From contig CAVUZH010000019.1 of the NCBI GenBank assembly GCA_963745835.1, forward strand, positions 448,001 to 512,000: a stretch of DNA of 64,000 nucleotides, given 5' to 3'. Shown here piece after piece: positions 30,855 through 33,401 of this stretch (positions are counted from its first letter, which is position 1; each line of letters starts with the position of its first letter). A model generated the notes under the pieces. The model was not told the origin of the DNA. It searched no databases and saw only the letters and a list, made by a program, of their open reading frames with translations. This stretch comes from an uncultured delta proteobacterium (lineage in GTDB: Bacteria; Desulfobacterota; Binatia; UBA9968). The position numbers and the translations under genes are program-made.

Positions 30855-32351
30855 ATGAACCAGATTGCTAACGATTCTGGCGACCAGCTATTCGCCTTCG
30901 ACAACACGTATGCCCGCGAACTCGAGGGTTTTTATGTCCCATGGCAAGCGGCGCAAGTGGCGCGGCCTCGGATGATAAAGTTCAACCATCAGCTGGCTGA
31001 TGAATTGGGACTGGATGCCGATGCTCTCGATTCGGACGCTGGCGCCAGGATCTTTGCTGGCAACGAAACACCCGAGGGAGCCGTGCCCTTGGCGCAAGCC
31101 TATGCCGGGCACCAGTTCGGCGGGTTTGTGCCTCAACTCGGCGATGGGCGAGCGCTGCTGATCGGCGAGGTGATCGATCGTTATGGGCGCCGCCGTGACA
31201 TTCAGCTCAAAGGCTCGGGTCCCACTCCGTTTTCGCGCGCAGGCGACGGTCGGGCAGCACTCGGACCCGTATTGCGCGAATATCTGATCGGCGAAGCCAT
31301 GCACGCGCTTGGCATCCCGACGACGCGAGCGCTTGCCGCAGTGGTCACAGGCGAGCCTGTTTATCGCGAGCGAGCCCTGCCCGGCGCAGTCTTGACGCGC
31401 GTTGCTGCCAGCCACGTCCGTGTCGGCACCTTCCAATTTTTCGCCGTGCGCGGTGAACAGGCCAAGGTGCGGCAACTGGCGGATTATGTGATCGATCGCC
31501 ATTATCCGGAGCTGAAGGGGCAGGCCAACCCCTTCCTGGGCTTGCTCGAGCGGGTGTGCGACAAACAAGCGGCGCTCGTTGCCGGCTGGATGCACGTGGG
31601 CTTCATCCACGGTGTGATGAACACCGACAATATGACGATCTCCGGTGAGACGATCGACTACGGCCCCTGCGCTTTTATGGATCATTACGATCCAGCCACG
31701 GTCTTCAGCTCCATCGACACTCAGGGCCGCTACGCATACGCCAATCAGCCAAGGATCGCGCAGTGGAACCTGGCGCGGCTGGCCGAAACGCTTCTGCCCG
31801 TGATCGATGAGGATACAAACCGCGCCATCGCGCGCGCCACTGAGGTGGTTAACGCTTTTTCAGGACGATACGAAACCTACTGGGTAAAAGGCATGCGCGC
31901 CAAGCTCGGACTATTCACTGAGGAAGAGGCCGATCTTAACCTTGCGACTGAGTTTCTCACGGCGATGGAGGGCAACGGCGTTGACTACACGTTAGCTTTT
32001 CGTTACCTCGCCGATGCGGCTCTAGGTGAACATGAACGACTCCGAAGCCTCTTTGCCGATCCGACCGCCTACGAGCGATGGAGTGGACACTGGCGGGCGC
32101 GGCTCTCGCGCGAAGCAGTGGCAGAGTCCGACCGTGCTCAGGCGATGCGGCGCGCCAATCCCGCGTTCATTCCCCGCAATTATCGAGTTGAGGAAGCCTT
32201 GAGTGCTGCGGTGGAGGAAGGCGATTACGCGCCGTTCGAAACGCTGCTGAAGATCCTAGCGCGGCCTTTCGACGATCAGCCGGAGTTTGCCGCCTATGCC
32301 GAACCTCCACCGGAAGGGCAAAGTCATTACCGAACCTTCTGAGGTACCTGA
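30855..32351 (+). CDS. selO: Protein adenylyltransferase SelO (YdiU); probable Sec at UGA 32340-32342, C-terminus YRTF-U-GT
   Basis: YAGHQFG..LGDGRA, QLKGSG.TPFSR.GDGRA, HGVMNTDN, IDYGPC; TGA-GGT-ACC-TGA at the end. Family call is firm; Sec recoding is inferred. Confidence 0.9.
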
Positions 32352-32353
32352 GT

Positions 32354-32377
32354 AACGCGTCCGGGGGACGCAAAGTT
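32354..32377 (+). promoter_or_regulatory. Putative bacterial SECIS hairpin
   Basis: gcgtcc-ggg-ggacgc stem-loop, G-containing apical loop starting 20 nt after the UGA; possible aac/gtt lower stem. Confidence 0.55.
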
Positions 32378-32642
32378 TTCACCCAGTTTCGCCAGTTTAG
32401 AATCAGGGAACCGGAGATTGCGCCTGCACAGGCGCTGGCTCGAGAAGTTCGGAGATTGAGAGTGCGAATCATTCGTAAAGGTTTTCATCTTTCCTATTCA
32501 AACTTAGCGACTTTGCGCCTTGGCGGGAGGAATTCCGACTCTGACTGCTTTCAGCTCTGCCGCGCTCTGGATTTATGATAACAGTTTCTTCGCATCAGAC
32601 AGGTAAGAAGATTTTTTGACGCAGGAGCCAAATCGACTCAGC

Positions 32643-33401
32643 ATGGCGCAAAAGTATTACGTCGTATGGTCAGGACGAGAGACCGGTGTATTCATGGATT
32701 GGGCGACCACCCAGCGCGCCGTGGAGCGGTATGCCGGCGCGCGCTACAAATCTTTCGCAACCCTGGCGGAAGCGGAGCAAGCGTTCCGTCGTGGCGGTTC
32801 CGCAATCACTCCGTCCAAGCCATCTAGCAAGCAAAGATGGAACACTTCAGCCAGGGAACGACGTGCCGCGCACATCGCTCACCGGTTCGATGCCACTATC
32901 TATTGTGACGGTGCATGTGATCCCAATCCCGGCAACTCCGGCTCCGGCATTGTAGTATATCGAGCGGGCAAACTCGCCGAATTGTGGTACGGCCTGTATG
33001 ACCCCATGGGAACCAACAACACGGCCGAACTGAACGCGCTCTATCATGCGTTGCGTATGGCCGAAGCAGAGCTCGAGGCTGGCAACAGCGTCGAGGTGTG
33101 CAGCGACTCAGCGTACTCCATCAACTGCATTCGCCTTTGGGCCCCCGGCTGGGAAAAGAGAGGCTGGAAGAAACCTGGCGGTGAGATCAAGAACCTGAAA
33201 ATCATCCAGGACTGTTACGCAATCTACCGCCGGATAAAAGACAAACTCACGCTCACTCATGTCGCCGGGCATGTCGGCACCGAAGGTAACGAACTCGCCG
33301 ACCGCATGGCCATGCTCGCCACGCAGCGCAAGGAAAAAGAATTGCGGCTGTATCAGGAAACGATGGATATTCCGACTCTGCTCAAGATGCGGGCGGGGTG
33401 A
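32643..33401 (+). CDS. rnhA: RNase HI with N-terminal Cauli_VI/hybrid-binding domain
   Basis: KYYVVW.GRETG; YCDGAC..NPG, TNNTAEL, SDSAY, H.G..GNE.AD. Confidence 0.88.
   Translation: MAQKYYVVWSGRETGVFMDWATTQRAVERYAGARYKSFATLAEAEQAFRRGGSAITPSKPSSKQRWNTSARERRAAHIAHRFDATIYCDGACDPNPGNSGSGIVVYRAGKLAELWYGLYDPMGTNNTAELNALYHALRMAEAELEAGNSVEVCSDSAYSINCIRLWAPGWEKRGWKKPGGEIKNLKIIQDCYAIYRRIKDKLTLTHVAGHVGTEGNELADRMAMLATQRKEKELRLYQETMDIPTLLKMRAG

Follow-up and report, generated by a model that had tools for sequence, protein, structure and literature searches.

SelO gene and its in-frame TGA codon

In this study, we examined a window of 64,000 nucleotides (nt) from the metagenome-assembled genome (MAG) of an uncultured delta proteobacterium (Binatia; GenBank assembly GCA_963745835.1, contig CAVUZH010000019.1, positions 448,001 to 512,000 of the forward strand), which contains a gene for SelO, a YdiU-family protein adenylyltransferase. 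Near its 3' end this gene has an in-frame TGA codon, followed by a small hairpin that resembles a selenocysteine insertion sequence (SECIS) element, and it very probably encodes a selenoprotein with selenocysteine (Sec) at the position of a C-terminal cysteine (Cys). The features of the locus, in window coordinates, are as follows:

30855..32351, + strand: SelO coding sequence, 498 residues with the TGA at 32340-32342 read as Sec; terminal TGA at 32349-32351
31668..31670, + strand: Cys272 in DYGPCAFMD, in the activation-loop region right after D-Y-G; candidate redox partner of Sec496
32340..32342, + strand: in-frame TGA, predicted Sec codon (residue 496), aligned with the C-terminal Cys of 6EAC and of homologues
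32343..32351, + strand: Gly and Thr codons and true stop, kept in 19/19 TGA forms
32357..32371, + strand: SECIS-like hairpin, entirely in the 3' untranslated region (UTR); stem GCGTCC (32357-32362) / GGACGC (32366-32371), loop GGG (32363-32365)

The open reading frame (ORF) up to the first TGA (30855-32342, 495 amino acids in the ORF list) matched Pfam PF02696 with an E-value of 2.8e-118 (396.1 bits; cut-off 22.8) and NCBIfam NF000658 with 583.9 bits (cut-off 431), which places the protein in this family and agrees with the SelO identity given by an original prediction made from the letters of this DNA. It scored below the cut-offs of the equivalog groups of both E. coli and Pseudomonas (NF040880, 422.8 vs 900; NF045949, 452.9 vs 850) and, as judged from such comparisons, belongs to a distinct TFCGT-type subfamily. 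Residues 13-497 could be aligned with the solved P. syringae SelO structure 6EAC, residue 496 being opposite the C-terminal Cys of the latter, and near-full-length alignment with solved SelO structures gave an E-value of ~1e-107. The kinase-like active-site motifs LKG(S/A)G, HGVMNTDNM and D(Y/F)GP are identical between the window protein and 6EAC; they are reportedly the catalytic motifs of SelO (Sreelatha et al., 2018). When the TGA is translated as U, the protein ends in S-H-Y-R-T-F-U-G-T. Only two Cys residues are present, one of which is Cys272 (DYGPC), and this residue showed no variation in 77/77 aligned proteins of the TFCGT-type subfamily.

The end of the gene (32328-32351) reads tac cga acc ttc TGA ggt acc TGA, and gtaac separates it from the hairpin. 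The letters at 32328-32371 thus agree with what the original prediction had described, namely an in-frame TGA, a retained Gly-Thr-stop and a hairpin with its loop 20 nt downstream. The site of residue 496 is occupied by Cys or Sec in 77/77 aligned proteins, including Cys in all 58 aligned Cys forms. After removal of duplicates, 19 distinct loci with TGA at this site (TGA forms) were available. Codon positions 1 and 2 of both Gly and Thr are invariant in these 19 forms and only the third position varies (GGT/GGC/GGG and ACC/ACA/ACT), a second TGA that serves as stop follows immediately in 19/19, and the ORF is intact, with 76-97% identity among them. A near-palindrome (CTGAGGTAC / GTACCTGAG) at 32339-32352 spans both TGA codons; it results from codon conservation, and no role is apparent for it.

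The TGA, which the original prediction had taken from the assembled letters, was also found in the contigs that span 32340-32366, which come from two DNA runs and two RNA-library runs, each of a different study. No other letter was listed at 32340-32342 in the contigs of the four runs, and one RNA-library contig carried a synonymous C>T change at 32339. Since contigs from four independent runs agree on the codon, it is not an assembly error.

Truncation of the annotated protein by three residues, which had been anticipated from the window alone, was evident in public data. Among the 120 best matches in a collection of 5.8 billion proteins, 58 end in ...xYxTF and 62 end in ...xYxTFCGT; 39 of the database sequences, all of them truncated forms, were inspected individually. 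Public gene calls (JGI, ENA, NCBI and Logan) end the Sec forms precisely at this codon, three residues short, and thereby remove exactly the regulatory residue.

Sec machinery and the downstream hairpin

The window's genome (hereafter G000) is a MAG of 25 contigs, 97.1% complete and with 9.33% estimated contamination, and the window lies on its contig C19. All of selA, selB, selC and selD, which the original prediction had left to be found, are present. A tRNA-Sec was detected by RF01852 (74.2 bits) and by ARAGORN (tRNA-SeC, anticodon TCA), and a selA-selB-selD cluster is located on contig C22 (608.6, 394.3 and 383.4 bits, respectively, each above its cut-off). In this cluster, selD (C22:69235-70161, locus L018) follows selA and selB and has an in-frame TGA at SVKAAG-U-AAKLGP, and so is a selenoprotein gene itself. 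Across the order, selA was present in 110/123 genomes, and therefore the Sec trait is order-wide. We also considered this trait as a factor that might separate genomes with a TGA form of SelO from those with a Cys form; this was rejected, since selA is frequent in both (22/25 vs 18/20).

Bacterial SECIS elements under the bSECISearch model, as quoted in the Fig. 2 legend of PMC13188914, have a loop of 3-9 nt and a stem of 4-16 bp; further constraints given in that article are G in the first two loop positions, a distance of 16-37 nt from the UGA and a free energy of -7.5 kcal/mol or lower. The hairpin of the window starts 14 nt after the first TGA, and with its 6-bp stem, GGG loop 20 nt from the TGA and folding energy of -8.3 kcal/mol (bare) or -9.8 kcal/mol (with flanks) it satisfies all these constraints, in line with the original proposal that it fits the bacterial model. 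Eleven copies of the exact hairpin motif were found in the 7.28-Mb genome, only one of which, that at SelO, is located 12-15 nt after a TGA. A search of Rfam gave no family match for the hairpin and three chance matches (E > 1) elsewhere in 32250-32650.

Among relatives, GCGYC-N5-GRCGC is found in 19/19 distinct TGA loci, its 5-nt loop being separated from the TGA by 18-19 nt; this version of the hairpin has a 5-bp stem (GCGUC/GACGC) and a CGGGN loop. Four of the six base pairs never vary over the 19 loci and one changes from U-A to U-G, while the outer (sixth) pair is C-G in 5 loci, U-A in 2 and unpaired in 12. The same motif was detected in 0/61 Cys forms (15 of the same clade and 46 outgroup sequences). 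Mean identity to the 16-position hairpin consensus was 15.7 in Sec forms, 9.5 (maximum 13) in the same-clade Cys forms and 6.7 in the outgroup Cys forms. Decayed relics of the hairpin are present in same-clade Cys forms at the same offset, e.g. ACGAGTCAGG...GACGC. Thus, many relatives with a TGA and a conserved hairpin at the same site exist beside Cys forms without the hairpin, a check that the original prediction had proposed. Because the 3' flanks past the hairpin are not alignable among relatives, this element of 15-17 nt appears to be under selection of its own.

Two other interpretations of the hairpin sequence were tried. As an intrinsic terminator it was rejected, since a consensus scan of 31900-32900 gave no terminator-like site (mean of shuffles 1.2); the tail after the stem (AAAGTTTTC) contains no T run and differs in relatives. 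An inverted repeat, CGCAAAGT (32369-76) / ACTTTGCG (32510-17), does exist, and the original prediction had noted that the hairpin might just be part of it. This repeat is not conserved in relatives and was set aside as chance or lineage-specific; since the hairpin is kept while the sequence past it is not, the hairpin is not merely part of the repeat.

Just 3' of the hairpin, at 32376-32403 on the + strand and ahead of the RNase H1 gene (32616-33401), a sigma-70-like promoter was matched by consensus only (TTTTCA, 16 nt, TAGAAT; 9/12). The genes adjoining SelO encode a metallo-beta-lactamase-fold protein, RNase H1 and an amidohydrolase, and no functional link emerges from them.

Distribution and evolution of Sec and Cys forms

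To describe how widely the Sec form occurs, we compared SelO genes at several taxonomic levels. SelO was found in 21 of the 61 related genomes, and the 19 loci with a readable C-terminus consisted of 10 TGA and 9 TGC forms. In the order-wide set of 123 genomes, 48 had a SelO match and the C-terminus could be read in 45 (25 TGA and 20 Cys; the Cys of G028 in this tally was taken from the reading of the 61-genome set). Of 401 genomes sampled from the phylum, 23 had a SelO match, with TGA in G000 only, and no second Sec-SelO lineage was found in this sample; the other 22 loci comprised 18 with a Cys C-terminus, one (L134) that reached a contig edge before the site and three without a C-terminal match. 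The best 80 loci from named public genomes included 12 TGA and 67 TGC/TGT forms and one that was cut off. These 12 TGA loci all share 76% identity or more with the window protein and mostly carry the label of Candidatus Binatia or Deltaproteobacteria MAGs, with single cases of Chloroflexota, Pseudomonadota and Candidatus Acidiferrales. Proteobacterial SelO relatives (60-71% identity) are Cys forms without exception.

Some SelO loci were unusual. The distant SelO proteins of the phylum at L135-L141 and L143 end in ...GCSMLSCSS (GSSMLSCSS in L140), unlike TFCGT, and all are Cys forms in the sample. Two genomes have an extra fragment that matches residues 419-498 of SelO only (71-73% identity), ~3-5 kb from the full-length gene (G499:C29:435912-436151 and G500:C9:295146-295385). 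In two others SelO is split over two or three frames (G497:C13:143354-144815 and G503:C14:2683-4175), the in-frame TGA being retained in the C-terminal pieces (two such codons in G497); the split genes may represent assembly frameshift errors or decaying genes.

We then reconstructed a maximum-likelihood tree of 40 SelO proteins, from which the Sec/Cys site and the two residues after it had been left out. Seven changes of the Sec/Cys label are needed on this tree, at least five of which are forced by well-supported branches, and the hairpin tracks the TGA codon at every change. For example, the sister of the Sec form L030 consists of the Cys forms L027 and L062, and that of the Sec form L058 is the Cys form L059. 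Codon and hairpin that appear and vanish together offer the clearest kind of comparative proof. Most simply, Sec and the hairpin look ancestral in the order, with repeated conversion to Cys accompanied by hairpin decay, since Sec forms with the identical hairpin make up the deepest branches of the clade. The relics share mutations, which points to a common loss behind several Cys forms, and the number of 5-7 changes may therefore be an overcount.

Both types of SelO occur in genus g1 (G007 and G002 compared with G000, G001 and G004-G006), where the Sec-type proteins are 91-97% and the Cys-type proteins 84-86% identical to the window protein and the two types are far apart on the SelO tree. Since one genus holds both, gene exchange or replacement within the order is likely. 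The SelO sequences of two family-f2 genomes nest among those of family f1.

A further difference between the two forms concerns the residue five positions before the Sec/Cys site (position -5). Among the loci, Cys at this position was found in 0/19 Sec forms, which have Arg (CGC) or His (CAT), vs 12/15 Cys forms (TGC). The 12 loci with this Cys (GCYxTFCGT) are L026-L029, L036, L037, L043, L046, L047, L050, L059 and L062, and the ending was also seen among proteins P0048-P0121. Among the database proteins, the 58 truncated (Sec-type) sequences have His in 54, Asn in 2, Arg in 2 and Cys in none, and 53 of the 62 Cys forms have Cys. In three well-supported contrasts between Sec and Cys sisters, Arg changed to Cys at -5 in two and not in the third. 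The GCSMLSCSS ending of other families of the phylum is likewise a C-x4-C pair. Judged from these alignments, the pattern at -5 would be a lead rather than a result, as the counts are inflated by relatedness. It could be joined with the tree into a single scenario, in which Sec SelO was ancestral, Sec was converted to Cys at least five times and nearly all Cys forms gained the additional Cys (G-C-Y-x-T-F-C-G-T, C-x4-C), so that one Sec would do the work of two Cys in a C-terminal redox switch. We regard this combined scenario as speculative and probably not correct in all its parts.

Comparison with known SelO proteins, alternative explanations and meaning

A bacterial Sec-containing SelO is already in print as a prediction. 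A 'selenoprotein O-like' selenoprotein was predicted by deep-Sep in Desulfosediminicola ganghwensis IMCC35004 (PMC12013277, 2025), and a 2026 review lists 'Selenoprotein O-like protein, PF02696, 1 Sec' (PMC13188914). According to the published text of PMC12013277, on which our comparison is based, the D. ganghwensis protein and that of the window share PF02696, a Sec-utilising bacterium as host, one in-frame TGA opposite the Cys of homologues, a SECIS-like hairpin just downstream and TGA homologues in other bacteria, and both are computational predictions. Unlike the D. ganghwensis protein, that of the window has MAGs labelled Candidatus Binatia or Deltaproteobacteria as its closest named relatives. 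The order-wide mosaic of Sec and Cys forms, the hairpin relics and the pattern at -5 belong to the window clade and are absent from the parts of PMC12013277 consulted. Literature searches that combined Binatia with SelO or selenocysteine revealed no paper on a Binatia SelO selenoprotein, although the deep-Sep supplements may list such homologues. Binatia-like MAGs are thus a new lineage for a predicted Sec-containing SelO. Reviews still attribute Cys to all prokaryotic SelO proteins (PMC7278666), and only one computational paper, of 2025, contradicts this.

Human SELENOO has Cys664-x-x-Sec667 near its C-terminus and, according to the part of PMC3994087 consulted, was labelled by 75Se in human cells. 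The window protein belongs to the same family and, like vertebrate SELENOO, would have Sec near the C-terminus at a redox-active position (496 of 498), but unlike the CxxU of the human protein it lacks Cys at -3 (Y-R-T-F-U), and its alignment with 6EAC showed no N-terminal extension for targeting beyond bacterial SelO. The decoding signals also differ, being a small bacterial-type hairpin 14 nt past the UGA in the window and a eukaryotic kink-turn SECIS in SELENOO. With the SelO proteins of E. coli and P. syringae (6EAC, 6III and 6K20) the window protein shares the kinase-like fold family and the C-terminal redox position; unlike in E. coli SelO, Sec would replace the C-terminal Cys, and the subfamily ends in TF(C/U)GT rather than ...SCS. 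Bacterial SECIS elements are described in PMC13188914 as lying within coding regions, whereas the window hairpin is wholly past the stop codon.

Based on these comparisons, a mechanism can be proposed. The UGA at 32340-32342 would be read as Sec, Gly and Thr would be added, and translation would terminate at the next UGA. Decoding would be directed by the small hairpin of the 3' UTR (5-6 bp G+C stem and G-rich loop), which lies 14 nt past the Sec codon and is entirely in the 3' UTR because Sec is the third residue from the end. SelB carrying Sec-tRNA(Sec) would bind this hairpin while the UGA occupies the ribosomal A site. Only 10-11 nt lie between the loop and the second UGA, which would be too close and would for this reason be read as a stop. 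In E. coli SelO, activity is regulated by a disulfide between Cys272 and Cys476 (PMC7278666, in the part consulted). Sec496 would stand in place of the C-terminal Cys of this inhibitory bond with an activation-loop Cys, and its candidate partner in the window protein is Cys272 (DYGPC); were this pairing correct, a selenenylsulfide would take the place of the disulfide in gating the enzyme. We infer Sec insertion itself, SelB binding, the partnership of Cys272 and redox gating.

Several observations weigh against decoding of the UGA as Sec, or against parts of the proposed mechanism. In the window's genome, 736 of 20,000 random TGA triplets (3.7%) precede a perfect-stem hairpin that satisfies the same constraints, and the 71-nt region of the SelO hairpin folds no more stably than its shuffles (z 0.39). 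Covariation in the hairpin is nearly nil (247/500 shuffles reach the observed score); since the stem hardly varies, covariation is uninformative, and the case for a hairpin structure rests on conservation and not on compensatory change. The SelO hairpin is also unlike the fold of the selD UGA region in the same genome, and therefore no organism-specific SECIS consensus supports it. The Sec genes are located on contigs C13 and C22 and not on the window's C19, in a MAG with the contamination given above, and selA was not found in 3/25 TGA genomes, namely G479 (93% complete), G503 (92%) and G519 (66%). The RNA-library contigs, including X15 and X16, which contain the TGA and the hairpin and then end or diverge near 32372-32379, are neither proof of transcription nor read as the end of a transcript. 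Finally, the column of E. coli Cys272 is Phe in the window SelO, whose own Cys272 lies 12 residues earlier, and the redox partner of Sec496 is therefore a guess.

The hairpin taken alone is thus only modest evidence for Sec, and it is the comparison across relatives that is decisive. If the TGA were an ordinary stop, the gene would encode a 495-residue protein without the regulatory Cys, and the hairpin would be a terminator or an mRNA-stabilising 3' structure. Public gene calls do end at the TGA (58/120 best matches), a G+C-rich hairpin right after a gene is in the usual place of a terminator, and the frequency of SECIS-qualifying hairpins after random TGA triplets points in the same direction. 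But no terminator-like site or T run was found in 31900-32900 and the tail is unconserved in relatives; Gly-Thr follows the TGA in 19/19 loci with third-position changes only; and the column is otherwise invariant for Cys/Sec (77/77). Moreover, the hairpin is present in 19/19 TGA and 0/61 Cys forms over at least five changes of the label, and a terminator need not vanish with TGC. An ordinary stop is therefore very unlikely. An even smaller chance, close to none, remains for a sequencing or assembly error, or for a recent TGC to TGA nonsense mutation in a decaying gene. Only one base change is needed for the latter and the genome is a MAG, but the TGA occurs in 25 genomes of the order, in 12 of the 80 best loci of named public MAGs and in contigs from four runs, each of a different study, and the remaining ORF is intact with 76-97% identity among TGA forms. 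As far as sequence data go, this explanation is already refuted.

It is also conceivable, though we consider it improbable, that both products matter, i.e. a 495-residue enzyme without the redox switch and a gated 498-residue Sec enzyme, in a ratio set by selenium supply. Termination loses three residues only, so the short product should fold, and the in vivo recoding efficiency in E. coli is given in the consulted part of PMC4513850 as 30-40% and selenium-dependent; on the other hand, termination products are unavoidable for any selenoprotein and need not function. On balance, the window gene very probably encodes a 498-residue SelO selenoprotein with the UGA at 32340-32342 decoded as Sec. 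The original prediction of a probable selenoprotein is strongly supported by the Sec machinery of the genome, by the 19 TGA loci with the hairpin and by its lack in the 61 Cys forms, and none of the refuting conditions named in that prediction was borne out.

With this locus, Sec-containing SelO gains a second bacterial lineage, one that is well populated, is widespread in soil and rhizosphere metagenomes and has Sec in more than half of the genomes with a readable SelO. Its mosaic of Sec and Cys forms supplies natural variants with which the contribution of selenium to a regulatory redox switch can be studied. If the tentative scenario of one Sec doing the work of two Cys were true, the clade would be a natural matched set of Sec, Cys and Cys-Cys enzymes for a regulatory, non-catalytic selenocysteine, and, as a switch-less enzyme three residues shorter would result when translation stops at the UGA, AMPylation could be tuned directly by the supply of selenium.

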